Sequence record: NC_104726.1 | Origin: a phage | Direction: 5' to 3' (one strand) | Length of the DNA stretch: 64,000 nucleotides | In this document: piece after piece, positions 2,640 through 62,717 of the stretch | How positions within the stretch are numbered: position 1 is the first letter of the stretch | How the letters are laid out: each line of letters begins with the position of its first letter | The notes under the pieces: generated by a model | The model's database searches: none | What the model was told of the DNA's origin: nothing | The model's input: the letters and a program-made list of their open reading frames with translations, nothing else | Translations under genes and position numbers: made by a program

Positions 2640-2739
2640 AGCGACCCTCCGTTTTAATTTCAACGGTAGTATACCTAACTGTTTTGTTAATTTCAAGTGT
2701 TGACACTAAGTTATTTGTGTGGCAGGATAGACTGACAAA

Positions 2740-3675: not shown

Positions 3676-4022
3676 AGAAGTGGATTGTGTGGCTTGATGA
3701 TTTTAGAGATCCGTCAGATTATGGACTCCCAGACGCTCTGTGGCTAAAGAATTCTTCTGAGTTTATGGATTTTCTTAATGATAAGAGAAAGCTCTACAGA
3801 CGCGTATCTGAGTGGTATTTTGACAATGATCTAGGTGAAGTGCTTGAAGGGTACGACTGCTTCTCTGCGCTAGAGGAGAAACTTGTATTCGGAAAGCCAC
3901 CACTTATTGACAACGTGATTATTTTCGTGCATACTTCTAATCCATCGGCAGCTCGTAAATTTATGCTTGCTGCTGACTCATTCAAGAAGTTTGGAATAGA
4001 GATTAAACAAAACATCTACTGA
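3672..4022 (+). CDS. hypothetical protein (116 aa)
   Basis: ORF overlapping upstream stop (ATGA); between RNA ligase and Sir2 genes. Confidence 0.5.
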   Translation: MKKWIVWLDDFRDPSDYGLPDALWLKNSSEFMDFLNDKRKLYRRVSEWYFDNDLGEVLEGYDCFSALEEKLVFGKPPLIDNVIIFVHTSNPSAARKFMLAADSFKKFGIEIKQNIY

Positions 4023-4030
4023 GGACACTT

Positions 4031-4792
4031 ATGCGACGACTGATTATTATCTCCGGTGCTGGTTTGAGCGCTGAATCTGGTATTCCCACTTTCCGATCTG
4101 GTAGCACTGCAATGTGGGAGAATTTCAGCATCGATGAGGTGTGCAACATCCACACCTTTGCCAAGAATTACTATAAGGTGCATGACTTTTACAATGCACG
4201 TCGTGTAGCTCTGGGCAGTGTTGATCCTAACCTTGCACATCTTCGGATCGCTGAGTGGTATTCCCGCTGGTCTGGTCGTGTGATCAACCTTACCACCAAT
4301 GTAGATGATTTGCTGGAGCGTGCTGGTGTAAAACATGAAGATATTTTACATGTCCACGGGTATTTGCCTGAAATCACCTACGAAGATGCTGAAGGTAATG
4401 ATGTAATTAAAAATATCGGATACACGGAGGTAGATACAGGCAAGTATACCTGGGTTAAGCCCAATGTAGTGTTATTCGGTGAGGTTGCTCCTAAGTATAC
4501 AGACATGTATGACCTGTTGACATCTCTCACAAGCAATGATATGGTGATCCTAGTAGGTTGTTCTAACACAGTTATTAATTTTAACTGGGAATTGTTTCCT
4601 GCTACTTGTAAAGGCACAAAACTGCTGATTGTAAACAAGTATGACTCGCAGAGTGCAGATGGAAGTGGCATTTCACGTAGCGACCTTTATCAATATGAGG
4701 ATCGCGGGATCCCTGTATGGTTTAACGGTGCTGTTGACGCTTTCTCTGATAAAGCATTTATTGAAACTGTAGAAAACTTTATGGAACTTTAA
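4031..4792 (+). CDS. Sir2 (sirtuin) family NAD-dependent protein
   Basis: Canonical sirtuin signature GAGLSAESGIPTFR, TTNVDDL (QNID-like), catalytic HG in LHVHGYL. Confidence 0.8.
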   Translation: MRRLIIISGAGLSAESGIPTFRSGSTAMWENFSIDEVCNIHTFAKNYYKVHDFYNARRVALGSVDPNLAHLRIAEWYSRWSGRVINLTTNVDDLLERAGVKHEDILHVHGYLPEITYEDAEGNDVIKNIGYTEVDTGKYTWVKPNVVLFGEVAPKYTDMYDLLTSLTSNDMVILVGCSNTVINFNWELFPATCKGTKLLIVNKYDSQSADGSGISRSDLYQYEDRGIPVWFNGAVDAFSDKAFIETVENFMEL

Positions 4793-4805
4793 AAGGAGAC
4801 CTTTA

Positions 4806-5519
4806 ATGCTGAATACTAAACTGATCGACAACCTGGAAAAACTGTCTCAGCCTGAAAACTACCTTTGGTCTGCCAACTGGGTGGAAAACTGGAACCGTGT
4901 GGCAGCTAAAGTGAAAAAATCATACACACCATTCGAATTACAGCTTAGCTTCATTGAGGAAGAGTTCAATGAGGTTTTGGAAGAGCTGGAGAAAGGTGAT
5001 GGTGGAGATCACCTGCTAAAAGAGGCCTGCGATCTTCACGTTGTCACAAGTTATGCCGCTTATCTTGTTAATGATAATCACGAAAAGTGGTCAAACCTGT
5101 TTGATAATCCACGAGGTCTTAAGTTCAAGATCGGTGAGTTCTATGATACACTGATCGCTGCGAAAAACACATCCAAGCAAAGAGCGTCAGCTTACCGCTT
5201 AGCGGAGTTGTCAACAGCTTTGCTGTTCCAGCTTCGCGGCGATGTGTGTGGGATGATGCGGAAGGTTCTCAAATCTAATGACAGCAAGTTTGCACGGATC
5301 AACCATCTACGATATTCTCACGGTGCCAGTGCAGATATGTCTACTGAATTGCTCATAGAGTTAGAGATTGAAGATCTTGAGCGTCGTTTTGGTGGTCGCT
5401 ACGAAGGTTTCGTTGCTAAAGAGGAGTTCTACAACGGTAATAAAGTTATTATATTCCTTGACAGTAAAGGTAAGATTATGAAGCCTTCGAGCTTCAAGGA
5501 TGTAACAGAGTATATTTAA
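4806..5519 (+). CDS. hypothetical protein, possible MazG-like all-alpha NTP pyrophosphohydrolase
   Basis: Acidic EEEFNEVLEELEKGD...KEACDL pattern resembling the MazG/HisE E-x-x-E metal motif; weak. Confidence 0.45.
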   Translation: MLNTKLIDNLEKLSQPENYLWSANWVENWNRVAAKVKKSYTPFELQLSFIEEEFNEVLEELEKGDGGDHLLKEACDLHVVTSYAAYLVNDNHEKWSNLFDNPRGLKFKIGEFYDTLIAAKNTSKQRASAYRLAELSTALLFQLRGDVCGMMRKVLKSNDSKFARINHLRYSHGASADMSTELLIELEIEDLERRFGGRYEGFVAKEEFYNGNKVIIFLDSKGKIMKPSSFKDVTEYI

Positions 5520-5525
5520 CAACAT

Positions 5526-5548
5526 AGCCGGGATTACCCGGCTTTACT
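5526..5548 (+). terminator. rho-independent terminator-like hairpin
   Basis: agccggg-atta-cccggct followed by a T-run, just after the stop at 5519. Confidence 0.5.
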
Positions 5549-5581
5549 TATTATGGAAAGTATGCAGTGAGGTAGTTAGTT

Positions 5582-5890
5582 ATGTACAAGCATTCCAGAG
5601 ATCTTGAAAAAGATGCTGTGTTTGGCGACCAGATGAAGGAGCTGATCAAACTTATAGGTAGAATGGAAGATAAGTTTGACACTAAAATCTACATCGATAG
5701 CAAGATCTTCAACCACAAAATATGGACAAATGTGTGTGTTGGGCTACATGGTGATAAAGATATTGTAAATTTGGTTGTAATAAAGTTCATAGTGTGGCAG
5801 AATAGGACTATACGTTATTCCGATCCACACTTACTTGTTTATCCTATAAAAGACCTACTACAGAAGGAGGACTGCAATGCCGTTATTTAA
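5582..5890 (+). CDS. hypothetical protein (102 aa)
   Basis: ORF with upstream SD-like sequence. Confidence 0.45.
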   Translation: MYKHSRDLEKDAVFGDQMKELIKLIGRMEDKFDTKIYIDSKIFNHKIWTNVCVGLHGDKDIVNLVVIKFIVWQNRTIRYSDPHLLVYPIKDLLQKEDCNAVI

Positions 5891-6146
5891 TCTTGCTAAA
5901 CCTGTAGAAGCACACCAGTTTGATGGAAGCTCTTCATCAGTATCTGATCTGCAACGGTGGATTGATACAGGTGTGTTTACATCGTCACCTGTTCGGACCA
6001 GAGATATTCGTCGCATGTGTGAGCTTGTTGAGCCGTTTGGCAACTTGGTTTTGTACCAGGGAGATTGGTTAGTTGACTTTATGGGAGACTGGTTGGTAAT
6101 GAGTAAAGAAGAGATGTTTAAAATTTTTAAGGAAGAGGCCGAGTAA
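5877..6146 (+). CDS. hypothetical protein (89 aa)
   Basis: ORF overlapping neighbours on both sides. Confidence 0.45.
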   Translation: MPLFNLAKPVEAHQFDGSSSSVSDLQRWIDTGVFTSSPVRTRDIRRMCELVEPFGNLVLYQGDWLVDFMGDWLVMSKEEMFKIFKEEAE

Positions 6147-31451: not shown

Positions 31452-31691
31452 ATGTACAAGTCATTTTCAATCTACTCAAGACAGGCGAAACACTACACAG
31501 AGATCCTGATCACTCAGAAAAAATCTGTGGAAGGTGAGTGGGAATATCACCATAAAATGTTGCGTCCAGACTGGGTTTTTGATAGACTTATTGCTATGAT
31601 CCCTCTCGGAGAAGTATACCCTCTGACAGCCCATCGCGATGCTTGGGATTTAATTGATTACATAGATTCATTTAAGGAGCCTAGATTATGA
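31452..31691 (+). CDS. hypothetical protein
   Basis: Internal ATG with AGGGGG SD. Confidence 0.45.
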   Translation: MYKSFSIYSRQAKHYTEILITQKKSVEGEWEYHHKMLRPDWVFDRLIAMIPLGEVYPLTAHRDAWDLIDYIDSFKEPRL

Positions 31692-32086
31692 AGATTGAGA
31701 TTACTAAAGAAGGTAAGAAAGTGTCCGGCAACTATGCAACAGTAATTCGGGATTTAATGTTTGAAGCCACCAAGATCGGTACATCTAAAGTTGGTCAAAC
31801 TGTTAGTGTGAAAAGTAATATCTCCACAGGAGAGAAGGTATTCATTGTGGTCAAAGGGCAGGATCCCGTGGAAGGAACAGTGGGCCGAGGTGGCTACCTG
31901 TGCATTTCTGAAGAGCCGCGTATGTTAGTGGCTGACGCTACTATGGGTGGGAAACGTGTGTGCGAGGCGGATGAGGTAATGATTATCCAACCTGTTGATC
32001 CAGATGACCCAGCAACTTGGGTGGTAGGAAATGAAATCTTCTCTTTAGAAGAGTTATCCTTCCCAGCACCGCGCTCTGTTCAGTAA
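31688..32086 (+). CDS. hypothetical protein, possible distant member of small-protein family A
   Basis: MKIEIT N-terminus and VFIVVKG core similar to family A members. Confidence 0.5.
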   Translation: MKIEITKEGKKVSGNYATVIRDLMFEATKIGTSKVGQTVSVKSNISTGEKVFIVVKGQDPVEGTVGRGGYLCISEEPRMLVADATMGGKRVCEADEVMIIQPVDPDDPATWVVGNEIFSLEELSFPAPRSVQ

Positions 32087-32123
32087 TAATTTATCTTACC
32101 AGGGACGGTAGGTAGGAGGTAGC

Positions 32124-32357
32124 ATGAAAGTTAAATTTCTTACAGATTTAGGGTACCCTTCCTTGGTTGACTGTGTCGGTAAAATTGTGGAAGCAAAACG
32201 GCTATCTGCAAACGAGAATGTTGTCCTGGTTAAAGGGAAGGATTTACTAGCTGCAGGTGCAGAGTCTGGCAGGATCTCTCCTGATTATATGTATTACCTA
32301 TCTTTAAGTAATCTGCCAGAGCGAGGCGGTAAAGGCCTTGAAGTTGTGGAGGAGTGA
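32124..32357 (+). CDS. small acidic protein, paralogue family A
   Basis: MKVKFL...LVKGKDLLAAGA...EVVEE pattern shared with ORFs at 35686, 35900, 37416-40076. Confidence 0.55.
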   Translation: MKVKFLTDLGYPSLVDCVGKIVEAKRLSANENVVLVKGKDLLAAGAESGRISPDYMYYLSLSNLPERGGKGLEVVEE

Positions 32358-32887
32358 CAGGTATGCTTCTGATTAACTGGGAAGACCTCTATGGGGACAA
32401 AGACCCTGTTGCGTTTGTTGATCGTAGGTGGAGATACACTGAAGAACAACTGGCGGCAAAAAATTTAACTGCAAAACGCAGAAAGATCATCCAGTGCAAG
32501 TACAAATACGCACAGTTTGCTGCAAAAGTGTCTCCACAAATCGAGAGCTTTGTGCTTAAATTGTATGACGAGTACCTCAAATTCAAATTGGATTTTGTGC
32601 AGGTGTACCGTGCACAGGTACGACCAGATACCAACATATGTAGATGGAAGGTTGTTTGTGAAGGTAAAGATTTGCCGCTCAGCTTGACAATTGAGTGGCG
32701 TTATGGGTATCATGAGTGTGGTCTGTATGATATTTGGGATGTCATTGTAGATCCTGCTAAGCATCTGAACACAGAGGAGCTGGAATATATCAATAAGGTT
32801 ATTCTCGATATGTTTTTCAGCTACACACATGAAAACTCTGAGAAAGAACGGGATAATTTTCTTGACACCCTCAGCGACCATTTGTAG
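32354..32887 (+). CDS. hypothetical protein (177 aa)
   Basis: ORF overlapping upstream stop. Confidence 0.5.
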   Translation: MTGMLLINWEDLYGDKDPVAFVDRRWRYTEEQLAAKNLTAKRRKIIQCKYKYAQFAAKVSPQIESFVLKLYDEYLKFKLDFVQVYRAQVRPDTNICRWKVVCEGKDLPLSLTIEWRYGYHECGLYDIWDVIVDPAKHLNTEELEYINKVILDMFFSYTHENSEKERDNFLDTLSDHL

Positions 32888-32917
32888 TATACAATTTAAC
32901 CTACAAAGGGAGGACCA

Positions 32918-33145
32918 ATGAGTATAAATGTTGTGCTAATAGGTTACCTGGTAATGTCCGTTATAACAGCGGTATTCTTGACAGGTGTATGCATCGTGTC
33001 CAGACGAAGGGTGAAGTTTGATGATTTTATCACCATCATCACTGCTGCACCTTTTTGGCCTGTTGTTATCTTCATCGTAATAATGTGCCTAGTTGATTAC
33101 TACAAGAATATCAGGAAGGAGAGTAGGGATGGAGACCGCACCTAA
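32918..33145 (+). CDS. small membrane protein (two hydrophobic segments)
   Basis: Hydrophobic stretches VVLIGYLVMSVITAVFLTGV and FWPVVIFIVIMCLV. Confidence 0.45.
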   Translation: MSINVVLIGYLVMSVITAVFLTGVCIVSRRRVKFDDFITIITAAPFWPVVIFIVIMCLVDYYKNIRKESRDGDRT

Positions 33146-33281
33146 AACTATCTATACTGTTCTTAAAGAGATTGCGTTCTACGCAGATCTTAGCCAGGCA
33201 CCTTTATGGGAAAAGAGCATGTATTTAAAATGGTGCGTTAATTTAGGGAGACCTTCCAGTGTTTCAAGCCATGTTTATTGA
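33129..33281 (+). CDS. hypothetical small protein
   Basis: ATG after AAGGAGAG SD; overlaps neighbours. Confidence 0.35.
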   Translation: METAPKTIYTVLKEIAFYADLSQAPLWEKSMYLKWCVNLGRPSSVSSHVY

Positions 33282-33364
33282 GATGCTATCTGGGATATTG
33301 TTACTAGTAGCCATCTTAGGTGGTGCAGTTCTGATGTATAACTATCTTGAAAAAGGAGACAGCA

Positions 33365-33550
33365 ATGGTAAAAAATAAATCTTTAGAGCAGGCTGAAAAC
33401 CTTCTCCACGAGCTGGTAAAGGAGTGGAAAGTTGAATACTCAGATTTTAATGCACGAGAGGGTGAAGATTATTGGCCTACGGAGCGCTCAGAGGGCGAAT
33501 GGTATCAAGATTTTATAGAGTGGTTATATCAGACGTGCGATGAGGGGTGA
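33365..33550 (+). CDS. hypothetical small acidic protein
   Basis: ATG after AAAGGAGACAGCA SD. Confidence 0.45.
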   Translation: MVKNKSLEQAENLLHELVKEWKVEYSDFNAREGEDYWPTERSEGEWYQDFIEWLYQTCDEG

Positions 33551-34017
33551 CGATGTTTGTTAAATATGTAAAAACGTGCCTCAACAGTCTTGGCAGAGAG
33601 CATTGGTACACCTTGCTTGAAAAAGGGGAAATTTTAACAAAATCTGGAAAGATAACTTTGATACCTCTTGATAGTAAAGGTAAAGACCCGTCACGACTTG
33701 TTATAGATGATTACGTTACAGGTGTGACGTTCGAGGTCTCTGTGGAGAGGTTAATACGCAGAGCTGGCGGCCCTTATGACCGAAGAGAGTATGTTTTCGA
33801 TTCCGTTACAGAGATGGGGGAGCATCCGTCTTTAATGTTCAGGATGGTAATCAGAGATATGAGGTCATCTATAGATAGGATCGTAAAGGACATTAAGGAA
33901 CCTTTTAGAGTAAAAGTTAAGAAGTTTTTCGATTCTAAGATTAACATACTCGCCGTTGCACTAGGTGTAGTTCAACTTCTGTTAATTTTGCACTATTTTG
34001 AACTACTATTTAAGTAG
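33547..34017 (+). CDS. hypothetical protein with C-terminal transmembrane segment
   Basis: C-terminal ILAVALGVVQLLLILHYF hydrophobic helix. Confidence 0.5.
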   Translation: MTMFVKYVKTCLNSLGREHWYTLLEKGEILTKSGKITLIPLDSKGKDPSRLVIDDYVTGVTFEVSVERLIRRAGGPYDRREYVFDSVTEMGEHPSLMFRMVIRDMRSSIDRIVKDIKEPFRVKVKKFFDSKINILAVALGVVQLLLILHYFELLFK

Positions 34018-34079
34018 TAGTTGAGATATGGCACAAAGGATGTGCCATAGTGAAATAAACTAAGAAAGAGGTAGAGAGA

Positions 34080-34427
34080 ATGCCAAAGATTAAAACGTTA
34101 TTACTGTGGGTAGCTGTTTTAGCTTTTATAGGGTACTGGACTTGGGAAACTGAATTAAAAGATATCGGATATACCAGTCTTGAGAGCAAGGCGTGCATTG
34201 GCATAACCGATGCGTTCAGGCAAAATGCTATGGATCACGAATGTGTTGATGCAGATATAGATGAGAAACTGTCTAAGGACAAAGATTTTTACCATGGGCA
34301 TGCTTTACTTGATAGTGGTGACACTGTAGAGTTCTGGTCGTGGTTTCGTGAAGATGGAACAATAAAAACAGCAGTAAAGATCTCTAACAAAGAGTTAATG
34401 CTGTTGCAGCAAAAGGAGGCTCAATGA
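34080..34427 (+). CDS. hypothetical protein with N-terminal transmembrane/signal segment
   Basis: TLLLWVAVLAFIGYW N-terminal hydrophobic segment. Confidence 0.5.
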   Translation: MPKIKTLLLWVAVLAFIGYWTWETELKDIGYTSLESKACIGITDAFRQNAMDHECVDADIDEKLSKDKDFYHGHALLDSGDTVEFWSWFREDGTIKTAVKISNKELMLLQQKEAQ

Positions 34428-34711
34428 TCTGGATATCCTATGCTGATGGCACCATGCTGTATACTGCAGGTACTAGGTATGAAGTTCAGGAGGACGATAA
34501 AAAATTTATCGTAAAAACATTTGACAAGGACGACAACCTTTTGTTAGAATTGACTTACAAGGTTGGGGAGGTATCTAGCATCCAGTTGGATTGTGGTCAT
34601 AAAGATAATCCACTCAAAAAACCTGGAGTAGGTAAGGCTTCAGAAGAACGTCTGTCTCGTATTGCAGAAAGCGTTTCTCCCCAAAAATCTAAGAAGAGGA
34701 CTAGAAAATGA
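34424..34711 (+). CDS. hypothetical protein (95 aa)
   Basis: ORF, ATGA overlap with neighbours. Confidence 0.45.
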   Translation: MIWISYADGTMLYTAGTRYEVQEDDKKFIVKTFDKDDNLLLELTYKVGEVSSIQLDCGHKDNPLKKPGVGKASEERLSRIAESVSPQKSKKRTRK

Positions 34712-34902
34712 AAAACTTACGTTTTAACACTTATTACTACAACACATTGAATGATTTGTATTATATTGTTCGAAGTAAAAGTCCTGAAACAGTCCTATTC
34801 TGCCGCGAACCTTTCAAAGGGGAGGAAGTAGAGTCTGAGATGAATGTTAGCCAGATCACCTCTTTGTTGCTCTCAGGCGCAATGGAAGAAGCAATATTCT
34901 AA
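34708..34902 (+). CDS. hypothetical protein (64 aa)
   Basis: ORF, ATGA overlap. Confidence 0.4.
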   Translation: MKNLRFNTYYYNTLNDLYYIVRSKSPETVLFCREPFKGEEVESEMNVSQITSLLLSGAMEEAIF

Positions 34903-34920
34903 ACCAGGCAGGAGGGTTTT

Positions 34921-35109
34921 ATGAAGCACTATTGCCTGTCTGGTAGAATGGGTGCAGATTGTGATTGGGTTTTCTTAAAACTTGTCAGCATTCGAGAGTT
35001 CATCCCAGAGGAAGAGCAAGAAAGCGAGCTGATGTCATGGATCAACCATTACGGTAACACTTTTCGGCATGTTAAGGTAGAAGAGTTGCCAAGCGAGGCT
35101 GAATTATGA
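34921..35109 (+). CDS. hypothetical protein (62 aa)
   Basis: ORF with SD GGAGGG. Confidence 0.4.
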   Translation: MKHYCLSGRMGADCDWVFLKLVSIREFIPEEEQESELMSWINHYGNTFRHVKVEELPSEAEL

Positions 35110-35402
35110 AACTTTTTGAGTGGTTTAAAAAGTTTAAATATAAAGCTGTAGCCATCGTGCCGTGGTCCATTCAGTGGGTTGATGAAGGTGGTCTACCGAT
35201 ACCTGGTGACAAAGATACTGGGTACTGGATTATGATGGAGAACGGGTTTGGAAAGCGAAAGTATACGTGCACAAACTCTACTCGATCTGCACTTAATAGA
35301 GTGCCCGGTTACAAACTTATGGTTGTGTGGAAAATGTCAGGCGTGCCTCCAGCCAATGCTCAATTTCTTACTGACAATCCGACCACGGTAGAGGGAGATT
35401 GA
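35106..35402 (+). CDS. hypothetical protein (98 aa)
   Basis: ORF, ATGA overlap. Confidence 0.45.
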   Translation: MKLFEWFKKFKYKAVAIVPWSIQWVDEGGLPIPGDKDTGYWIMMENGFGKRKYTCTNSTRSALNRVPGYKLMVVWKMSGVPPANAQFLTDNPTTVEGD

Positions 35403-35686
35403 TAATGAAAAAGATTAACAGTAGTGAAGTAGAGTTTAAACTTGTCGGAAAAGGCACTTACTGGGAAGTTCGTCAAAAGGTATATTTGTTCGGTCTTATT
35501 CCCTACTGGTCTAAATTCTACTGGGGAGCTAACGAGTTGGGAAGATATGCCACCAAATCAATGGCACTTATTGGTATAGCAGAGTACATTGCAGCCCGAG
35601 ACAGGGTTGGAACCACTTATTACTACACTGCTGACGATATTCGTAACAGTGTTTACGTCCCACAACCACCTGATGGAGACCGTTGA
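35399..35686 (+). CDS. hypothetical protein (95 aa)
   Basis: ORF, overlap with neighbours. Confidence 0.45.
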   Translation: MIMKKINSSEVEFKLVGKGTYWEVRQKVYLFGLIPYWSKFYWGANELGRYATKSMALIGIAEYIAARDRVGTTYYYTADDIRNSVYVPQPPDGDR

Positions 35687-35910
35687 TGAAAGTTAAAGTT
35701 TTAGATTCAAGCTTCTATATTGGTCAGGAGCCTTTAGTAGGAAAAGTGTTTACTGCTGTCCCTAACGAAGATTACCCTGACCTTTTAAAAATAAAAGGAG
35801 CAGATCTTATTGCCGCTGGTGCATCTCAGGAATGCTTTGACAGTCAGTGGACCTATAACTTTGCCCTAGGTGAGGATGTAGAGGTAGTGGAGGACGATCA
35901 TGAAGGTTAA
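35686..35910 (+). CDS. small acidic protein, paralogue family A
   Basis: MKVKVLDSSFYIGQ...KGADLIAAGA...VEVVED. Confidence 0.55.
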   Translation: MKVKVLDSSFYIGQEPLVGKVFTAVPNEDYPDLLKIKGADLIAAGASQECFDSQWTYNFALGEDVEVVEDDHEG

Positions 35911-36154
35911 AATTCTTGATTCTAACGTCTACTTGGGACAATCCTTCCTGAATGGAAAGGTCGTTCCTGCGGTATACTTTGAAGGGTTGCCGTGGGATGA
36001 TCCTGTGCGGCAACATCACAGTTATGTAGGCCACAACGTGGTGTTTATCTTGGGATCAGACCTGATCACCGCTGGTGCACCTGAATATTATTTCGGGGAA
36101 GAGTCCTACTATGCCTTTGGGGTAGGGTCAGATGCAGATATTGTAGAGCTGTGA
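35900..36154 (+). CDS. small acidic protein, paralogue family A
   Basis: MKVKILDSNVYLGQ...GSDLITAGA...DIVEL. Confidence 0.55.
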   Translation: MKVKILDSNVYLGQSFLNGKVVPAVYFEGLPWDDPVRQHHSYVGHNVVFILGSDLITAGAPEYYFGEESYYAFGVGSDADIVEL

Positions 36155-36166
36155 TGGGTAACCGTT

Positions 36167-36565
36167 GTGAAAAATAAACTGTTTAAAGTTACAATGAAAA
36201 TTCGCGGGGCTTGGAGCGTAAAGCAAGGGCGTATTCCAGAATTTGAGAAAGACTTCTACGTAGTCTCCACCTCGGAGGAGGCTGCATGCTGGCAGGCTGG
36301 CTATGCCTATGCAAGAACCTGGTACGAAGGATACCAGACTGGGGGCTATGACGGAGAAATTATCAGCAAGGGTGTAGAAGAAATTAATGTGTTGACAAGT
36401 GAAAAAGTTTTTGTTATAGTGCATCCAGATTCCAGAGTGAAGCATTACTGGAATGCCAGAACAAAAACTTGGACACCGTTTGCAGATTCTGCTACGCCAC
36501 TTTTAAACCAGAAAGCTCTTGACTCTGCCCCAAGTTATGGGGTTGTTGAAGAAAAGCTAAACTGA
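36167..36565 (+). CDS. hypothetical protein, paralogue family B
   Basis: HPDSRVKHYWNARTKTWTP matches HPHSNIAYYWDVLNNEWTP in the ORF at 38377. Confidence 0.5.
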   Translation: MKNKLFKVTMKIRGAWSVKQGRIPEFEKDFYVVSTSEEAACWQAGYAYARTWYEGYQTGGYDGEIISKGVEEINVLTSEKVFVIVHPDSRVKHYWNARTKTWTPFADSATPLLNQKALDSAPSYGVVEEKLN

Positions 36566-36582
36566 AACAGTGAGGTGTCACC

Positions 36583-36873
36583 ATGATGGATTTAATTCTA
36601 AATATTGATAACGCAGGAGAGTTTAAAGACGATGGTGTAACAAGCATGGACAAACCCTGCTCTGCTAAGGTTGACTCAAAATGGACCTACAAGTTTGACG
36701 GAGAGACCTTCGCAAATGATGAGAAGGTTGTAGATGCTGCAGCCATTTTAAACGCTCTAGGGTACGACCCTGTGAATTCTTTGATCAAGGATCCTGTTGA
36801 GTTTGCAGAGTATGTTCGAAAAATGGCAGATCTTGCTGTGGATATTTTAAAAACTATCGACAACAAGCTGTAA
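36583..36873 (+). CDS. hypothetical protein (96 aa)
   Basis: ORF with SD GAGGTG. Confidence 0.45.
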   Translation: MMDLILNIDNAGEFKDDGVTSMDKPCSAKVDSKWTYKFDGETFANDEKVVDAAAILNALGYDPVNSLIKDPVEFAEYVRKMADLAVDILKTIDNKL

Positions 36874-36879
36874 AAACTG

Positions 36880-36908
36880 TTGACACAACGCTTCAGATTT
36901 AGTATCAT
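36880..36908 (+). promoter_or_regulatory. sigma70-type promoter (TTGACA-17-TATCAT)
   Basis: Read directly: ttgacacaacgcttcagatttagtatcat, upstream of the hpf-like gene. Confidence 0.5.
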
Positions 36909-36957
36909 TGTTTTCAAAGAGAGATAGTTATTCCCTCTTCCTTAAAAGGAACACGTT

Positions 36958-37278
36958 ATGCAAATTGAAATCACTGGCAACAATGTAGAAATCACAGAAG
37001 GTATGGTATCTTTTATTTCCCGCAAAATGTCCAAGCTGGAGCGTTTACATCCCTCTGTTAACTATGCACGTGTGAGTGTAAAAGTTGAAAATGATCACCA
37101 GGAAGTTATGGCGTTCATTTTTGACAATTCTGGAAAAGAAGTTATTGCCAAGGCTAAAGGCAGTGATGCTTACGAGGCAACTGACCGTATGGTAGATGTT
37201 GCAGCACGTCAGCTGGCTAAATGCGGTGGAAAGAAAGGTAAGGGGAAAGGCAAAGTAAAGATTGACTTTGGAGAATGA
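36958..37278 (+). CDS. hpf: ribosome hibernation promoting factor / ribosome-associated inhibitor (HPF/YfiA family)
   Basis: MQIEITGNNVEITEG...KAKGSDAYEATDRMVDVAARQLAK closely parallels E. coli HPF MQLNITGNNVEITEA...AEGQDMYAAIDGLIDKLARQLTK. Confidence 0.85.
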   Translation: MQIEITGNNVEITEGMVSFISRKMSKLERLHPSVNYARVSVKVENDHQEVMAFIFDNSGKEVIAKAKGSDAYEATDRMVDVAARQLAKCGGKKGKGKGKVKIDFGE

Positions 37279-37415
37279 GGTGCTACAATGGGTGTGATTA
37301 AGAAATTAGTCCCAAATGTAGAGATTGCATGCTTTGAAATTATGTTTGCAATCGCAGTTGTAGTTAATGTGTTAGGTTACGGCTATTAATATCAAATAAT
37401 TGAGGAGACCTCTAA

Positions 37416-37685
37416 ATGAAAATTAAATTATTCCAAACTGAGCTGGCAGACAAAAATTGTGGACTGGTTGAAGGCATGATTGTTGAAGCACAACCAGTGG
37501 ACTATATGAAGGTGGTTCGTGATGCCCTAGGTGAAGGTTTTGATCTGATGGAGCCAGCTCTGCGAGAAGATGTTATCGAGATGGCTAAAAAGCACACACC
37601 TGAAGGTTTGGTGGTGTTTGTTGCACCGGGTAACGGAGAAGAGTTGATTGTAACTCCTGATGTGTATGAGATTGTAGAGGAATAA
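37416..37685 (+). CDS. small acidic protein, paralogue family A
   Basis: MKIKLFQ...VVFVAPGNGEELIVTPDVYEIVEE. Confidence 0.5.
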   Translation: MKIKLFQTELADKNCGLVEGMIVEAQPVDYMKVVRDALGEGFDLMEPALREDVIEMAKKHTPEGLVVFVAPGNGEELIVTPDVYEIVEE

Positions 37686-37776
37686 TCCTGCTTGGATTAG
37701 CATACTTCCTCGCTAAGGAAGATTTGTAATTATTTGTGGGAAAGGAGTCCCAATCTCTTACCAGAGGTGATACTAT

Positions 37777-38040
37777 ATGATTGTTTATTTTAAAACTTCA
37801 GGTGGATACCCTGATTCTCAAAGCTTGATCGGAAAAACGTGCACAGCATACTCACCTCTTGATGAGGAGGTAAGCGATATTTTACGAAATATGTATCGGA
37901 TTGACCCCCAAGAAGCCTTTGATCAAAACCTTGTATTTGTCAAGGGCTCAGATATGAAGTCTTTGGGAGCATTCCCTGAAGCAGATGATGATGCCGTTTA
38001 TTCGTTCATGACTCCTTTTGAAGCTATGGTTGTTGGGTGA
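37777..38040 (+). CDS. small acidic protein, paralogue family A
   Basis: LVFVKGSDMKSLGA...EAMVVG. Confidence 0.5.
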   Translation: MIVYFKTSGGYPDSQSLIGKTCTAYSPLDEEVSDILRNMYRIDPQEAFDQNLVFVKGSDMKSLGAFPEADDDAVYSFMTPFEAMVVG

Positions 38041-38044
38041 TAAT

Positions 38045-38377
38045 ATGAAAGTACGCTTTATTGGTGAAACAATTCCTGTGCATCTCCGGTCGCCTGAGGA
38101 TTCTGCAGATCTTGCATCTCAAAAGGCGAGAGGTTATGATAAGAAAGTAACCTCAACCGATGTAGTGCTTGAGGCTACTAGTCTACCTGACCCTGCTGCA
38201 TTCTTTAATCATTATGGGTACTATTTCAGCAATCTGATGAATATCGGTGAGCTTGTGTTTATTAGTGGTGGAGAAATTGTTAGCAAGCTTGGCGGCGATC
38301 CGGATATCTTTCATGAAACCTGTCCTTTTGCATTTGTGGTAGGTTCAGATGTGGAAGTTATTGAGGAGGTGCGGTAA
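38045..38377 (+). CDS. small acidic protein, paralogue family A
   Basis: MKVRFIG...LVFISGGEIVSKLGG...DVEVIEEV; start at internal ATG. Confidence 0.5.
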   Translation: MKVRFIGETIPVHLRSPEDSADLASQKARGYDKKVTSTDVVLEATSLPDPAAFFNHYGYYFSNLMNIGELVFISGGEIVSKLGGDPDIFHETCPFAFVVGSDVEVIEEVR

Positions 38378-38772
38378 TGGTAAGCCTATACCGTGTTGAG
38401 TATAGCTCAGATACTGTATACAACGTAAGAAGCAAAGATCGCAGCGACAGAGTGCAAGAAATGTATGTTCTTGCCGACAGTCCGTTATCTGCAGCGTTCA
38501 AGGCAGGGGCTCTTGCATCTCGTTGGAAATTTGAAGGTGGATCTTTCTATGAAGAAACCCTTGAAGATTCTGTTGTTATTTCTTCTGTAGAGGTTTCAGA
38601 TGACTACGAAGGGAAAAAGTTCGTAATGCGGCACCCACACAGCAACATTGCGTACTACTGGGATGTTCTGAACAACGAGTGGACCCCAGATCTTCAGAAG
38701 GCTACTGTGCTAACACCGTTTTTGGCAGATAAGTTCCCACCAGAAGGTAATTTATCCGCACTGTTTCAGTAA
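38377..38772 (+). CDS. hypothetical protein, paralogue family B
   Basis: Shares the HP-x-S...YW...W-TP block with the ORF at 36167. Confidence 0.5.
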   Translation: MVSLYRVEYSSDTVYNVRSKDRSDRVQEMYVLADSPLSAAFKAGALASRWKFEGGSFYEETLEDSVVISSVEVSDDYEGKKFVMRHPHSNIAYYWDVLNNEWTPDLQKATVLTPFLADKFPPEGNLSALFQ

Positions 38773-38790
38773 TTTTCTTGCACACAGGTG

Positions 38791-38819
38791 TTGACAACGC
38801 CAACCCTGTGTGAAATAAT
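38791..38819 (+). promoter_or_regulatory. sigma70-type promoter (TTGACA-17-AATAAT)
   Basis: Read directly: ttgacaacgccaaccctgtgtgaaataat. Confidence 0.45.
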
Positions 38820-38851
38820 ACCTTCATCTTAACAAGACAGGGGACCGATTG

Positions 38852-39109
38852 ATGAAGATTAAATTGAAAAACCTTGAAACGGCAGAGATTCAGGACGGTG
38901 TTGATTTCCGTTCTAAAGATGGTGACATCTTAGAGGTAAATATTCCAACCTACGAGCTGATTAAAGGTTTTGGCAACGTTCCGGAAGAGGATATTACAGA
39001 AATTCTTATGATGTTGATTCTTGACGGAACTGTGTTTGTAGGTGAAGGTGAGAACGCTATTGCAATCCCAGGCCATTTTTATGAAGTAGTTGACGAAGAG
39101 GTGCTGTAA
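38852..39109 (+). CDS. small acidic protein, paralogue family A
   Basis: MKIKLKNL...TVFVGEGENAIAIPGHFYEVVDEEV. Confidence 0.5.
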   Translation: MKIKLKNLETAEIQDGVDFRSKDGDILEVNIPTYELIKGFGNVPEEDITEILMMLILDGTVFVGEGENAIAIPGHFYEVVDEEVL

Positions 39110-39460
39110 ATGAAAGTAGAAATTACCGGTTTTGATGTGAATGTGGTTCCGGAAGATATTTTAGCTAAACTTCCAGAAGGTTTTGGTAACGGCGTTGTGG
39201 TGGATGCTGTTCCTCCTACCAAAGACATTCTGCTGCAGTATGGTGTAGCAGAGGAAGATGTCGATAAAGTTCTTACAATGATGGCAATCGATCGTGTTGT
39301 CGTTGTTAAAGGTCTCGATAATTTTGAGAGTGATCCCCTGATTATTCGTGGAGATGACTACAAAATCATCGATAATGAAGGCCAAGAGTTCTATGAACCT
39401 TGTGCAGAAGATATTCTTAACTTATTACTGGAAGCAGGTACCGAAGAGGAGGACGAATAA
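39110..39460 (+). CDS. small acidic protein, paralogue family A
   Basis: MKVEITGFD...VVVVKGLD...; highly acidic C-terminus. Confidence 0.5.
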   Translation: MKVEITGFDVNVVPEDILAKLPEGFGNGVVVDAVPPTKDILLQYGVAEEDVDKVLTMMAIDRVVVVKGLDNFESDPLIIRGDDYKIIDNEGQEFYEPCAEDILNLLLEAGTEEEDE

Positions 39461-39789
39461 TGAAGATTGACCCGTTACTGAAGGCTCGTGCAGAAAAAGC
39501 GTACACCATTAAGCTGACCAACCTGGTTCCTACTTGTCATCCAGATGTAGGTTGGCCTGAAGGTCTGGTAGAGGGGACTGTAACAGCTGCATACCTCCCT
39601 AACATCAAATACCTTATGGAAATCTTGGAGCTGGATGAGGAAACGGCAGAAGAGTTACAGTTGGACATGAAACAAAGTGGGACTCTGGTTATTCACGGGT
39701 GGTATAATACTAAAGACGCAGAAGACCCTCTTGTAACTTCTAATCTGGCATATGAAATCTTAGGACCTTTGAACCTGGGGGAAGACTAA
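39460..39789 (+). CDS. small acidic protein, paralogue family A
   Basis: MKIDPLL...LVIHG...YEILGPL; ATGA overlap. Confidence 0.5.
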   Translation: MKIDPLLKARAEKAYTIKLTNLVPTCHPDVGWPEGLVEGTVTAAYLPNIKYLMEILELDEETAEELQLDMKQSGTLVIHGWYNTKDAEDPLVTSNLAYEILGPLNLGED

Positions 39790-40076
39790 TGAAAGATCTG
39801 GTTAAGATTAAGATTAAAGATACCAACGGCGAACTCAGCCATTTTGGAATTAATGATGGTGACGAGCTGATCGCACACCTGCCTACCAAGGAAGTTGTAA
39901 GCAAAGCAGTTGCCGGAGAAGAAGATGCAATGCAGGCTGCAGGTGTGGATGAAAACTATGTAGCCATGTGCATGTGCCGAGACCAGGTTGTTCTGTATAA
40001 AGCGTATCGACCAAACGGAGCCACGGAGTGGCTTGTATTCCGACCCGAAGGATATGAAATCTTAGAGGCACTATGA
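39789..40076 (+). CDS. small acidic protein, paralogue family A
   Basis: MKDLVKIKIKD...PEGYEILEAL; ATGA overlap. Confidence 0.5.
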   Translation: MKDLVKIKIKDTNGELSHFGINDGDELIAHLPTKEVVSKAVAGEEDAMQAAGVDENYVAMCMCRDQVVLYKAYRPNGATEWLVFRPEGYEILEAL

Positions 40077-40457: not shown

Positions 40458-40598
40458 ATGACTGATTTTACTGAAGCTTTAATGATGGCCTTGTCTGTTT
40501 TAGCGCTATCGGTGTGTTTTGGGGCGTTATTCACATCTCTGGTTAAAGTTTTACATACAGTATTATTACCCAAGGAGCGCAGTAATGACGAAGATTGA
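40458..40598 (+). CDS. small membrane peptide (46 aa)
   Basis: AAGAGGTGAGGA SD 3 nt upstream of ATG; hydrophobic core; not in ORF track (under 60 aa). Confidence 0.4.
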   Translation: MTDFTEALMMALSVLALSVCFGALFTSLVKVLHTVLLPKERSNDED

Positions 40599-40836
40599 CT
40601 TAAATGCTGGAGACCATGTTGTTGTCAAATGCATCGGAGATTATCTTGGATTCACAATCGGCAATACTTACGAGGCGGTAGTGGCGAAGGTTTACCATGA
40701 TAAAGTCCTCAGTCTTGTATTTGACTGCGATGATGATGGGGATGACCGATACGTCTGTGAGGTGCTGGCACGAGACGATAGTGAAGACCAGAAATTCCTG
40801 GTTATTGAACTGAACGGTATTTTTGTAGAACGTTAA
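40585..40836 (+). CDS. hypothetical acidic protein
   Basis: ATG after AAGGAGCGCAGTA; overlaps upstream peptide gene. Confidence 0.45.
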   Translation: MTKIDLNAGDHVVVKCIGDYLGFTIGNTYEAVVAKVYHDKVLSLVFDCDDDGDDRYVCEVLARDDSEDQKFLVIELNGIFVER

Positions 40837-41552: not shown

Positions 41553-41863
41553 GGTGGATTATGTCTACAAAGGCGGCTAAATACTCCTATATGCCATCAA
41601 CCTCTGCAGAGGTAGACTTTAGTTTCGATGTGTTTCCACTGTTTGAGGTGATTCTGGCATACCCAACAATACTATCTACTCCTGAATCACTTGTACCTGT
41701 TAAGTTGCAGAACGCTATGCATTCTATGCACTACAACAATAATAAATGTAGGCACAGATGGTGTCAGGACGAGGAAAAAGATTTGGATAGTTTGAGGGAT
41801 TTTGACAGTCACCTTTTGACACCTTTCAGCTACTCCAACCTTGATAAGCCCTCATGGGTATAG
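41549..41863 (+). CDS. hypothetical protein (104 aa)
   Basis: ORF, ATGA-type overlap. Confidence 0.45.
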   Translation: MRWIMSTKAAKYSYMPSTSAEVDFSFDVFPLFEVILAYPTILSTPESLVPVKLQNAMHSMHYNNNKCRHRWCQDEEKDLDSLRDFDSHLLTPFSYSNLDKPSWV

Positions 41864-42556: not shown

Positions 42557-42772
42557 ATGAAGATAGAAATATTTGGTGGAGCTGACAACACTCGTGGCCT
42601 GATTTACCTTGAATTCGATGAATCATACCTGCCAGAGGTGTTAAATATAGGCTCTGTTGCTGAGGCTTTGGGAGTAAACCCTAAAGAACTCCACTCTTGT
42701 GCTGAGATCGATGGTTGGGAAGAGACCATGAACATTGATTTCAGTGAAGTAGAGGATGAACCGCTTGACTGA
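42557..42772 (+). CDS. hypothetical acidic protein (71 aa)
   Basis: AGAGGAG SD; last plus-strand gene before the non-coding region. Confidence 0.5.
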   Translation: MKIEIFGGADNTRGLIYLEFDESYLPEVLNIGSVAEALGVNPKELHSCAEIDGWEETMNIDFSEVEDEPLD

Positions 42773-44235
42773 CACACAATTAGCTGCCCGGCTAAAGTGC
42801 TGGAAGCACCTATAACACATCTTTCAACTAAATTTCCTACCACCACAATCACTTACCTCCCACACATGACTGTTTGCTTGTTTAGTGAGCAGTCATGCCT
42901 TGACATTCTTGCCTATCCTGATAAAATTAAGTTCTTCTCTTTTCTTTTACCGAGTAATTCGGGTTTTCTGTTCTCTTCGGTTTGAAGGGGTATGGAGATA
43001 CACCTGAGTGAACAGGGTGAACAACCGAACATTTGGCTATGGCATTAGCATGGCGAAGCGGACGGGTGACGAAAGAGGGGCCGGAGGACACCAGTCACTG
43101 CCATATGATATATGGGTGATAACCTGAAGAGTCTGAATAAGTGTTTAAGTACCAGTCAGAGGAAAAGGTGAATGGTAGCCGAAGGGGGAGGGGGGTTTCT
43201 TGTATCTTTAATTTGTATATTATGTATACACTCGTAAACCAATCTCATCTGAATCTGTTTACCACACAAAGTAGATAGGGACAAATATCACCTATTAAAC
43301 TTGAATTATTTATAGAAAATACCACAACACCACTTAAGTCTTTGATTTTACACACAAATCCTACAGATATTCAACCTCTATATTTAACATATTCATAACA
43401 TATTCCATACTCTACCTGTCTGATCAATTTACCCAACCACATCCTCCATATTTTCCCTGTCTGTACTACCCCTGCCCCGCCGGGAGTCCCGTCATATCTG
43501 GCTTTCCAGCAAATATCACACCCACAAATATCATTACCTGAAGAGGGTTTCATCCCATAATACCTGCCTTACCTGAAGAGCGCTTCATATACCCCGTAAA
43601 TTTTTTAATTGACCCCCTCCCCGCCGCCGGAGGGGTCGGCTTTTCCCACACAGGCCTGAAGAGTCAGCCAGAAATATCTGAACAGGTCCAGTTATACCAC
43701 GATTTTGACCTGACCGACAGGAGTGCTGCCAGGCGGACGAAATGGGAATCATTCTCATTCTTATAACAATTCTCAAATATCGAGGCAGTGAGGCAAATTA
43801 ATAGGTGAGGCCGTTCACACAATGGCACAACATTTGCAACCTATCTTGTGGGAGTGAATGAGAATACCTATCATTGTGAGAATAGTTATCATTACGGGCA
43901 ATTTAACATAATACCCATTATGCGCACCACTGGCGATCCATACAGGGATTGATAACATGAGTTACCGTTTACGCACATAACAATTATATTTCTTACTATT
44001 TGTGTGGGATATAGTTAGCAGCCAATAGATTAGATATTAACCTGCGGACTTCTGACCGTCCAGACGTCTAAACGCCCACACAACAAGGGTTATACATACA
44101 CAACTGAATGTAAACAGGGCCGCAAAAATGCTACCATACCAGTTTGTAAATTTTCATGCAGCACTTGACAAAGAGGAGAAAAACTTGTCTGACACCTTAT
44201 ACACTTTCGACACAATAACGACTGTTATTATTTCA

Positions 44236-44315
44236 TGTTTCACTGTTCACGTATAGATTGTTCCCGCATAGACTGTTTACGCCTGGATAGTTTACACCTT
44301 AACTGTTTACACAGA
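44236..44315. repeat. iteron-like direct repeats of (C)TGTTTAC-type motif
   Basis: ctgttcac, ttgttccc, ctgtttac, tagtttac, ctgtttac spaced about 11-14 bp apart. Confidence 0.45.
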
Positions 44316-44384
44316 TAGGATAAGCCATGACATTCGTTTGCATGAAAACAATTAGCAAGTTAACAATTAACAAGTTAATAATAT

Positions 44385-44580
44385 ATGACATAATATAAAA
44401 GCAGGGCAACTATTAGCAGATCTATAGTTGCCTTGCTTGTTATGTCATGATTAACTGAATACAAGGCAACTATGATCTGATTAATAGATTGCAGACAAAC
44501 TATCACGGGGGTGATGGTTACTGCTTTTATATTATGTCGCGACTCCGTCGCGCCATGCCATTCGTTTGCATAGTTGCCTT
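44385..44580. repeat. nested inverted/direct repeat structure (18-bp perfect inverted repeat flanking GGCAACTAT repeats)
   Basis: gacataatataaaagcag at about 44387 and its reverse complement at about 44521; ggcaactat four times in both orientations; ccattcgtttgcat direct repeat. Confidence 0.55.
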
Positions 44581-45185
44581 ATTGTTACGAATAAAACAAT
44601 TGCATTGTTAATGATTTCTTATCTTTCTCTTAGTCATCTAATGATTACAGTCAGTATAGTTATGTACAGTAAACATTAGACGACTAAAGATTTCTCTGTT
44701 TATTATAACTTACCATTACAATTTCGGACTGTTTACCAAGAATGTTGACACATAAGCTGATTTATGTTATGCAGTTTACACGAATAATTATTTTATGCAG
44801 GTATTGACTATTCCGTTATTCTATGGTTGGAATAAATACTTAGCAGACTATAGAATGGTGAGCGTACGTAAATTCTGAGATCTGGCGGCTATAGTTATAC
44901 TCGATTTTTCACGTAGAACACGCTTTTGTGGTTGTGTAAGTGTATGACTTATAAAGATTTTTAGTTGTTGACAAGACACTGAAGATATGCATCAGGTTAA
45001 ATTTTGTGCAATAGCTGCATTACGTGCACTTTTGGGAGAGAAAACGGGTAAAAATGGGCCTGCTACCACACAATGAAAGATTATGCAATAGTTATTTTCC
45101 ATGTATATTTGTACAGTATGTGGAATTGATGGCTAGTCAATTATTCCACTTGCCAGGTAGGGCCGTTTATGGTAGGAGAAGAGCA

Positions 45186-45215
45186 GACAAAAAGAAAGGG
45201 GCCTTTAAGCCCCTT
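45186..45215 (-). terminator. rho-independent terminator (minus strand)
   Basis: aaggggc-cttta-gcccctt hairpin; on minus strand followed by tctttttgtc; just downstream of the stop at 45234. Confidence 0.6.
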
Positions 45216-62471: not shown

Positions 62472-62717
62472 TTAGCCAATCACTTCGAAAGTTCCCCAAT
62501 TCCCGTCCAGCAGGCAGGTGATCGGATCCCCATCGTCGTCAAAGATTTCAAAGTTTTCAGCATCCAGGATGTGGCCCTCGAACACAATACTTTCGTCGCC
62601 ACCGCCAGAGATAACAGCATATTCCTTGCCTTGAGTCAAGTTTTGACACCCTTTGCCACCAAAACCTACTTCAACACAACGTACTTTCTGTCCTGCGCGA
62701 GCAACTGCTTCAGTCAT
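62472..62717 (-). CDS. hypothetical protein (81 aa)
   Basis: AGGAGACC SD. Confidence 0.5.
   Translation of the reverse strand: MTEAVARAGQKVRCVEVGFGGKGCQNLTQGKEYAVISGGGDESIVFEGHILDAENFEIFDDDGDPITCLLDGNWGTFEVIG

Follow-up and report, generated by a model that had tools for sequence, protein, structure and literature searches.

Two families of small proteins with a predicted SH3-like fold and a repeated three-gene cassette in an rV5-like coliphage

Positions 31688-40076 of a 64,000-nt stretch of phage DNA (sequence record NC_104726.1; the whole stretch is referred to as the window) are occupied by an array of small genes, among which lies a gene for an HPF/RaiA-like ribosome hibernation factor. 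Over these 8.4 kb, the sequence is 99.8% identical to that of Escherichia phage Murica, and the phage belongs to the rV5-like genus Vequintavirus; 114 of the 121 matching phage records, all rV5-like, cover at least 80% of the array stretch. All open reading frames (ORFs) of the array are located on the + strand at the coordinates given in a first-pass annotation, which was made by a model from the sequence alone, and each corresponds to an annotated coding sequence (CDS) in close relatives. In Murica and the BASEL phages, these CDSs are labelled 'hypothetical protein', with the exception of the HPF/RaiA gene. The first-pass annotation described the locus as about ten tandem paralogues. Ten such proteins, here called A proteins, are indeed present, but, as judged by sequence statistics, they constitute two families of five members each, A1 and A2, and not a single family of ten; a two-gene family, B, accompanies them. 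The genes, named hereafter by their start coordinates, are listed below with the length of their products in amino acids (aa) and, where given, the isoelectric point (pI) and the E-value obtained with a leave-one-out hidden Markov model (HMM).

31688..32086, +: acidic ORF named in the first-pass annotation, 132 aa; not A1, A2 or B, but a family of its own (phrog_5748)
32124..32357, +: A1 member 1, 77 aa, pI 5.4; isolated copy
35686..35910, +: A1 member 2, 74 aa, pI 4.1; first gene of cassette 1; modelled protein
35900..36154, +: A1 member 3, 84 aa; second gene of cassette 1; overlaps the 35686 gene by 11 nt; BLASTP E 1.5e-14 to 35686
36167..36565, +: family B member 1 (B1), 132 aa, pI 7.8; third gene of cassette 1
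37416..37685, +: A2 member 1, 89 aa, pI 4.3; leave-one-out E 3.2e-4, best non-member E 1
37777..38040, +: A1 member 4, 87 aa, pI 4.1; helical insert; first gene of cassette 2
38045..38377, +: A1 member 5, 110 aa; longest inserts; second gene of cassette 2
38377..38772, +: family B member 2 (B2), 131 aa, pI 4.7; third gene of cassette 2; 1-nt overlap with the 38045 gene
38852..39109, +: A2 member 2, 85 aa, pI 4.1; first of four contiguous A2 genes; modelled protein
39110..39460, +: A2 member 3, 116 aa, pI 4.05; acidic C-terminal tail; leave-one-out E 1.6e-10
39460..39789, +: A2 member 4, 109 aa; N-terminal extension; leave-one-out E 1.3e-3, best non-member E 1.3
39789..40076, +: A2 member 5, 95 aa; leave-one-out E 5.7e-6

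Similarity was assessed by all-against-all BLASTP, phmmer and iterative HMM searches over the window's 457 ORFs with a length of 40 aa or more. An HMM seeded on 32124, 35686 and 35900 recovers the two other A1 proteins, 37777 (E 1.6e-6) and 38045 (E 5.4e-5), and the next of the 457 ORFs follows at E 1.6. Pairwise signals within A2 are weak, the best phmmer match being that of 39110 to 38852 (E 1.6e-4). With orthologue variants added, each A2 member is regained by a leave-one-out HMM (E 1.6e-10 to 1.3e-3), and no non-member has an E-value below 0.12. Between A1 and A2, hhalign comparison of family profiles in local, global and low-mact modes yielded probabilities of 1.7-8%, which are not significant, and comparison of ortholog-group profiles in all 25 cross pairs yielded probabilities of at most 2.2%. 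Thus, the similarity goes beyond composition, but it divides the A proteins into two groups. The two B proteins, recognized in the first-pass annotation as an interleaved two-member family, match each other in BLASTP (E 2e-8), and both belong to phrog_7379. The protein 31688, which had been counted with the others, joins none of these families; its best in-window phmmer match has an E-value of 1, and its hhalign probability to A1, A2 and B is below 2%.

The terminal motifs that had been reported to unite the array are strongly enriched in it. The N-terminal motif MK[VI]x[IVFLY] is present in nine ORFs of the window, seven of which are located within the array, and the same is true for eight of the ten ORFs with a C-terminal motif of the [YFV]E[VI][VI][ED] type. 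Both motifs together are found in five ORFs, all of which are family members (three A1 and two A2), where ~0.2 would be expected by chance. The acidity of the A proteins (pI 4.05-5.4) is real but not distinctive, as it is also common among many unrelated neighbours. Likewise, coupling of the genes is tight, but the ATGA overlaps that had been emphasized mainly join non-family genes, and the junctions between family members mostly consist of a 1-nt TAATG/TGATG overlap or a 0-4-nt gap.

The non-significant similarity between A1 and A2 and the weak pairwise E-values of several A2 members could be taken to mean that the array is an artefact, produced by compositional likeness of short acidic ORFs or by ORFs that are non-coding. 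However, in the leave-one-out HMMs, a distance of two orders of magnitude or more separates the members from all of the 447 or more remaining ORFs. Moreover, confident structural models, ratios of nonsynonymous to synonymous substitution rates (dN/dS) far below 1 in every gene, and transposon-insertion phenotypes, all discussed below, argue against it. The probability of an artefact is therefore practically negligible; it is refuted for A1, A2 and B and holds solely for the membership of 31688.

AlphaFold2 models of 35686 (A1) and 38852 (A2) are confident, and both match SH3 domains in a fold search, with 28 of the 60 Protein Data Bank (PDB) chains listed being common to the two. The model of 35686 is an SH3-like barrel, and that of 38852 is an SH3-like barrel with a two-helix insert. 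Based on these models, all ten A proteins (74-116 aa, acidic) are predicted to be built on an SH3-like five-stranded barrel that is superposable on SH3, KOW or PsaE domains; structure prediction had been proposed as a check for a shared fold, and the models reveal one. A1 represents the compact form and contains a conserved G-x-[DE]-L-x-x-x-G-A turn after strand 3. In A2, the two-helix insert is located between strands 2 and 3. The inserts of the longer A1 members (35900, 37777 and 38045) are found at the same position as the A2 helices, and therefore the two families would have the same fold with the same terminal strands. Among these inserts is an 'LPxDP' segment between strands 2 and 3 of 35900, which is common to the genes at the second position of both cassettes (35900 and 38045). 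Two variants of 37416, designated P0047 and P0048, differ mainly in the helical insert. Considering the shared fold and the terminal motifs, A1 and A2 may plausibly have a common origin.

The likeness to known SH3-like domains, i.e., eukaryotic SH3, Spt5/NusG KOW, PsaE and bacterial SH3-like domains, is in the predicted small β-barrel. In sequence, the A1 and A2 proteins are only 4-25% identical to them, and no SH3 or KOW model of Pfam matches even at E 1. Furthermore, canonical SH3 domains lack the two-helix insert of A2 and the conserved GxDLxxxGA helix of A1. Both families consist of acidic, stand-alone proteins. In a Foldseek search against BFVD, all matches were uncharacterized small phage proteins, with template-modelling (TM) scores up to 0.87. 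They include the Shigella phage CM1 orthologue of 37777 (87 aa, TM 0.81) and proteins of Citrobacter phage Merlin, RB49, Cronobacter CS01 and Vibrio VpV262, none of which has a known function.

The arrangement A1-A1-B occurs twice in the array, as cassette 1 (35686-36565) and cassette 2 (37777-38772). Cassette 2 is flanked by gaps of 91 nt upstream and 79 nt downstream. Within it, 37777 and 38045 are 4 nt apart, and 38377 has its own strong ribosome-binding site, GAGGAGG. Other features in and beyond the array are:

36880-36908, +: promoter TTGACA-N17-TATCAT, near-consensus sigma-70, strong and directly upstream of the HPF gene
36958..37278, +: HPF/RaiA-like ribosome hibernation factor, embedded in the array but not a family member; the preceding promoter is its own
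37705-37721: terminator-like hairpin after the 37416 gene, in the gap upstream of cassette 2
38791-38819, +: promoter TTGACA-N17-AATAAT with upstream TG, near-consensus sigma-70, before the four-gene A2 block
41564-41863, +: orthologue of bas54_0140, 99 aa, no Pfam match; 1.5 kb downstream of the array in the same gene string

The HPF-like gene was correctly named in the first-pass annotation: its product matches PF02482 (HPF/RaiA) with 56.7 bits (cut-off 23.7, E 4.2e-15) over 83 of the 88 profile positions. The array comes after genes for PhoH, a ClpP-like protease and an adenine methyltransferase. The best reading is that the region consists of non-structural accessory genes that are at least partly transcribed from host sigma-70-type promoters; 14 of the 16 best promoter-like sites in the 28-44 kb interval fall on the coding strand.

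Small size, acidity (pI 4.05-4.7 for most), acidic C-termini and early-type promoters are properties that the array proteins share with Ocr, ArdA and Arn, i.e., DNA mimics that act as acidic decoys in the DNA site of restriction enzymes or other DNA-targeting defence enzymes, and the first-pass annotation proposed to look for a DNA-mimic surface. In other respects, the resemblance is poor. The array proteins have no sequence or fold likeness to Ocr, ArdA or Arn and no Pfam matches, and the top structural matches are SH3 domains. Acidity is, as mentioned above, shared with unrelated neighbouring ORFs, and 32124 (A1) and B1 are not strongly acidic. Moreover, the Vequintavirinae have been reported to be exceptionally susceptible to restriction-modification systems, without effective protection (PMC8594841). 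Thus, a role as DNA-mimic anti-restriction proteins is unlikely, and we consider its probability to be very small.

The genes have been catalogued before, as their products match PHROGs profiles over the full length with E-values of 1e-32 to 1e-76. Three A1 proteins, 32124 (E 8e-36), 35686 (E 1.7e-38) and 35900 (E 3.7e-32), are in phrog_5009, which matches 37777 weakly (E 1.2e-4) and 38045 not at all. The B proteins 36167 (E 4e-74) and 38377 (E 2e-66) are in phrog_7379, and the other array genes are in the singleton PHROGs 11868, 12359, 12155, 12457, 12794, 13920 and 13661. However, all these entries are of 'unknown function', 37777 and 38045 are not joined to A1, the five A2 proteins are not joined together, and the catalogue is silent on fold, cassette arrangement and phenotype. 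Consistent with the earlier statement that no member belongs to a recognizable family, no Pfam or NCBIfam family was matched. In a Pfam scan of the five A1 proteins, four A2 proteins and 31688, nine of the ten had no family at E ≤ 1; for 39460, one unrelated weak match was found (Type_III_SycN, E 0.24). The fifth A2 protein, 39789, gave weak unrelated matches (LRAT and HTH_16) in a separate scan. An NCBIfam search gave no relevant match for the array proteins, and a sequence search of the PDB gave no meaningful match for A1, A2 or B. A candidate relationship of family B to the SAKe designer proteins was rejected, since the matches were repeat artefacts. No paper in the literature searched cites phrog_5009, phrog_7379, phrog_13920 or phrog_13661. 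The A1, A2 and B families are not described in the rV5 genome paper or in the other literature found, and the mBio paper on OI-172 does not mention the locus. New here are the two-family structure with a shared, predicted SH3-like fold, the A1-A1-B cassettes, the pattern of constraint and the link to an existing conditional-essentiality phenotype.

The array had been called diversified, but its genes do not diversify rapidly within the genus. All members are present in the five divergent vequintaviruses sampled, and the pooled dN/dS values range from 0.04 to 0.24, with the lowest values for 37416, 37777 (0.05), 38045 (0.05), 38377 (0.04) and 36167. Thus, the array consists of constrained protein-coding genes and is not a rapidly diversifying island. 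Compared with phage Aya, the dS values are 0.75-1.3 for 32124 and 35686 and 0.15-0.5 for neighbouring genes; 35900 could be aligned to its Aya counterpart only with gaps (78% nucleotide identity) and was left out of the dS calculation. These values point to a mosaic history of the 32124, 35686 and 35900 copies. Recombination within an A2 gene is suggested by P0051, a 98-aa chimera encoded on a 657-nt ENA contig, in which the C-terminal half of the 39460 orthologue is preceded by an N-terminal DUF7399 domain (PF24132, E 3e-11); the fusion junction falls inside the helical insert of the 39460-type protein.

The families differ in their distribution. Homologues of A2 and B were found in rV5-like contigs only, in a search of 5.8 billion proteins, and tblastn of 35686 and 39110 against phage genomes detected vequintaviruses only, with >80-90% identity. 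More distant relatives of A1 occur in Krischvirus, Citrobacter phage Merlin, Iodobacter phage PhiPLPE, a 54-kb lambdoid-like coliphage and others, in these unrelated phages always within strings of small hypothetical genes. In Krischvirus KFS-EC (positions 1445-4828 examined), the A1 profile firmly matches an ORF at 4001-4261 (E 8.5e-9) and the adjacent one at 3785-3982 (E 4.9e-6), and three more nearby ORFs weakly (E 2.9e-4 to 2.9e-3). With two to five copies present, the A1 family thus appears from these profile matches to have been multiplied in tandem also in a T4-like phage. The closest relatives of 32124 include a gene of the unrelated 54-kb phage MagusPhagus (4001-4228; A1 profile E 1.8e-22). 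A family-B-like partner was sought beside the A1-like genes of Krischvirus and MagusPhagus and was not found. The distant A1 relative P0066 is on a 999-nt contig, and its gene context is uninformative. Beside the A1 relative in MagusPhagus, at 4969-5916, four consecutive ORFs of 70-85 aa with an 'F..G.IY' type motif look like another small tandem paralogous family. Two giant proteins, P0061 (4388 aa, E 1e-7) and P0062 (3624 aa, E 1.5e-6), also contain repeated stretches, four to five in number, that match the A1 profile; one of the two proteins bears YDG and MBG adhesin-type domains. These matches may represent a shared small-barrel repeat or a compositional artefact.

Phenotypes of the array genes can be derived from published transposon-insertion sequencing data on BASEL phage Bas54 (MaxBurger, MZ501093.1), which are found in supplement 9 of a preprint (HIDEN-SEQ; 10.1101/2025.11.20.689424). 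Orthology was established by protein alignment (99-100% identity), by which bas54_0150, 0151, 0152, 0157, 0158, 0159 and 0166 correspond to 38377, 38045, 37777, 36167, 35900, 35686 and 32124, respectively; bas54_0152 and bas54_0151 are 100% identical to 37777 and 38045, and bas54_0150 is 99% identical to 38377. The A2 orthologues, bas54_0146-0149 and bas54_0153, were matched by DNA comparison at the locus (99-100% amino-acid identity). In E. coli K-12, the array genes are all classified as 'Non-essential', except bas54_0151-0153, which are 'Intermediate' (10.1101/2025.11.20.689424). In the uropathogenic strain CFE311, as compared with K-12, bas54_0152, 0151 and 0150 have zero reads over 14, 21 and 24 TA sites, respectively (59 in total), with log2 fold changes (log2FC) of -7.16, -6.17 and -6.77 and an adjusted p of 0 each (10.1101/2025.11.20.689424). 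The B1 orthologue, bas54_0157, is depleted ~4-fold (log2FC -2.14, adjusted p 0), whilst the decrease for bas54_0153 (37416) is not significant (log2FC -2.78), and bas54_0166 (32124) has a log2FC of +0.72 (10.1101/2025.11.20.689424). The HPF gene, bas54_0155, is non-essential on K-12 and shows no significant change in CFE311 (log2FC -0.53; 10.1101/2025.11.20.689424). Thus, cassette 2 is dispensable in K-12 and required in CFE311, and B1 is partly required. The array genes were neither discussed nor followed up in the preprint (10.1101/2025.11.20.689424).

Since both B paralogues are depleted in CFE311 and the A1 genes upstream of B1 are not, it could be argued that B1 and B2 are the effectors in this strain, that the depletion of 37777 and 38045 is a polar effect on 38377, and that the roles of A1 and A2 are unrelated or negligible. 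The 1-nt overlap between 38045 and 38377 and the 4-nt distance between 37777 and 38045 would allow for translational coupling. However, the transposon lacks a terminator, and the authors reason that polar effects are not widespread (10.1101/2025.11.20.689424). In their data, insertions in bas54_0158 (35900), the end of which lies 12 nt before the depleted bas54_0157 (B1), and in bas54_0141, located 8 nt upstream of the depleted bas54_0140, are not depleted (10.1101/2025.11.20.689424). As insertions in these two genes do not reproduce the phenotypes of the genes downstream, insertions at the locus are generally non-polar, which, together with the absence of a terminator in the transposon, makes polarity unlikely for the cassette 2 block. 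In addition, 38377 has its own ribosome-binding site, and the dN/dS of 37777 and 38045 (0.05) is as low as that of B2. A role for family B only is, therefore, distinctly unlikely. The depleted block coincides with cassette 2, which is set off by the gaps of 91 and 79 nt.

The reading that we favour, in which our confidence is evenly balanced, is that the array proteins are host-specific accessory proteins that serve as binders in counter-defence or host takeover. The A1, A2 and B proteins would act as stoichiometric binders of host proteins, with different paralogues covering different host targets. By doing so, they would neutralize host factors that differ between strains, most probably determinants of immunity. 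The A1 proteins of cassette 2, 37777 and 38045, probably work together with B2. Binding of strain-specific host factors would explain why the genes are dispensable in K-12 and why CFE311 demands cassette 2 and, in part, B1. Counter-defence appears the most likely role because the same genetic signature flagged anti-defence genes in the same screen, because the validated anti-defence gene bas54_0140 is a neighbour, and because the A1 relatives behave as mobile accessory genes.

The comparison with the anti-defence genes described in the HIDEN-SEQ preprint, i.e., bas54_0140, T4 nrdC.1 and adfM, is instructive in this respect (10.1101/2025.11.20.689424). Like the array genes, they are located in strings of small genes of unknown function, and genes of the bas54_0140 type are dispensable on K-12 and depleted on a particular host; cassette 2 even shares its gene string with bas54_0140. 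Both bas54_0063 and bas54_0140, the latter by knockout, were validated as needed against DS-28, a predicted defence system of CFE311 (10.1101/2025.11.20.689424). In contrast, the array proteins resemble neither bas54_0140 nor any known anti-defence family in sequence, and, whereas DS-28 is the validated cognate system of bas54_0140, the phenotype of cassette 2 is one of insertion depletion. Of the defence systems of CFE311, DS-28 and Gao_Tmn were cloned by the authors and tested with genes other than those of the array (10.1101/2025.11.20.689424).

Several considerations weigh against a role as strain-specific counter-defence binders. An SH3-like fold is very common and by itself says little about function. 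Seven of the ten A members, i.e., the four contiguous A2 genes and three other A1 genes, are unchanged in CFE311, and so are 31688 and the HPF gene (10.1101/2025.11.20.689424). The phenotype data stem from a preprint, in which a single clinical strain is readable, as the sheets for CFE303 and CFE311 in the available copy of supplementary file 9 are identical and both represent CFE311. The requirement in this strain could reflect a physiological or surface difference instead of immunity, and residual polarity through translational coupling may have the consequence that B2 alone is needed. No defence system or host target has been matched to any member, the follow-up by the authors being limited to bas54_0063 and bas54_0140. 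Furthermore, the strong purifying selection and the genus-wide presence are unlike those of usual arms-race genes, and the Vequintavirinae are, as mentioned above, reported to be exceptionally sensitive to restriction-modification systems (PMC8594841). Hence, the idea of the first-pass annotation that the array is an anti-defence or host-takeover locus is upheld in part. The absence of family matches, the host-type promoters, the depletion of cassette 2 and B1 in CFE311, and the anti-DS-28 neighbour 1.5 kb downstream are in line with it; the seven A members without phenotype and the lack of a matched defence system are not. Our confidence is kept at this level because no host determinant has been matched, most A members are without effect in CFE311, the genes belong to the strongly constrained core of the genus, and the data concern one strain in a preprint.

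Some of these points would fit better if the proteins were general takeover or regulatory adaptors whose binding to conserved machinery of the host or the phage (e.g., RNA polymerase, the ribosome or proteases) tunes infection, the need for cassette 2 in CFE311 being a matter of strain physiology. The surroundings are of an early type, with a phage HPF, a ClpP-like protease and PhoH nearby, the genes belong to the genus core and are subject to strong purifying selection, and SH3/KOW-like barrels are common adaptor modules. In addition, the 'Intermediate' status of bas54_0151-0153 on K-12 hints at a modest general role in fitness. However, total loss of insertions in one strain combined with tolerance in K-12 is what the authors of the screen use as the signature of anti-defence genes, HPF itself shows no conditional phenotype, and the patchy occurrence of A1 in accessory regions of unrelated phages suits mobile accessory genes better. 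A function as general adaptors is, therefore, rather unlikely.

If the array proteins are indeed host-specific binders, a more explicit proposal can be made, which we offer tentatively as possible rather than probable. The genes 37777, 38045 and 38377 would encode a three-protein module, in which two SH3-like barrels and a B protein disarm an immunity determinant of uropathogenic E. coli; A1 would be a widespread anti-defence fold, and A2 a helix-insert derivative of it for other targets. Should this be true, the A1 family would constitute an anti-defence fold that has escaped recognition so far; its relatives are scattered, and often present in multiple copies, among Krischvirus, lambdoid-like, Iodobacter, Citrobacter and further phages. 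Phages of the rV5 type belong to the coliphages that are isolated most often, and they are candidates for therapy, but about two thirds of their genes have no known function. A set of 'hypothetical proteins' now becomes a defined object, with two families predicted to be SH3-like, a partner family, a repeated cassette and a phenotype in a clinical strain that had not been discussed. The possible outcome is a new mechanism of host range or counter-defence and an annotation for a small-protein family of many unrelated phages; if the cassette merely tunes the physiology of infection, the interest would be local.

Within the interval considered in the first-pass annotation, a block of 1.76 kb (33583-35341) contains six unrelated small genes. 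It is missing in MaxBurger (Bas54) and present in four other vequintaviruses and is, thus, a presence/absence polymorphism. The block includes an ORF for a 'virion structural protein' (33553-34017). Further small, acidic, β-rich ORFs are found at 40582-40836 (+), 42557-42772 (+) and 62472-62717 (-), one of which begins with MKIEIF; they have no detectable similarity to A1, A2 or B. Consistently, hhalign of 36583, 40582 and 42557 against A1, A2 and B revealed no relation.

The + strand gene string that contains the array runs to ~42.8 kb and is followed by a non-coding region of 2.5 kb. This region, at ~42800-45200 of the window, has no convincing ORFs and separates convergent gene strings. The GC skew changes sign at ~42 kb, near this ORF-poor stretch, and a cluster of iteron-like direct repeats and inverted repeats of 15-18 nt is present at 44300-44750. 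Scans for tRNAs and Rfam families in the surroundings of the array, including ~42800-45200, gave no match. In the Bas54 counterpart of the region, zero transposon insertions are tolerated. The region may represent an origin or some other cis element that is essential.

Among the GenBank records that match the array, 18 are titled 'Campylobacter phage' (MG065635, MG065653 and 16 more), with C. jejuni given as the host. Those among the matches listed are 98.7-99.8% identical over the locus to rV5-like phages of E. coli. Judged by this identity, their host labels are probably wrong, or the samples were contaminated.

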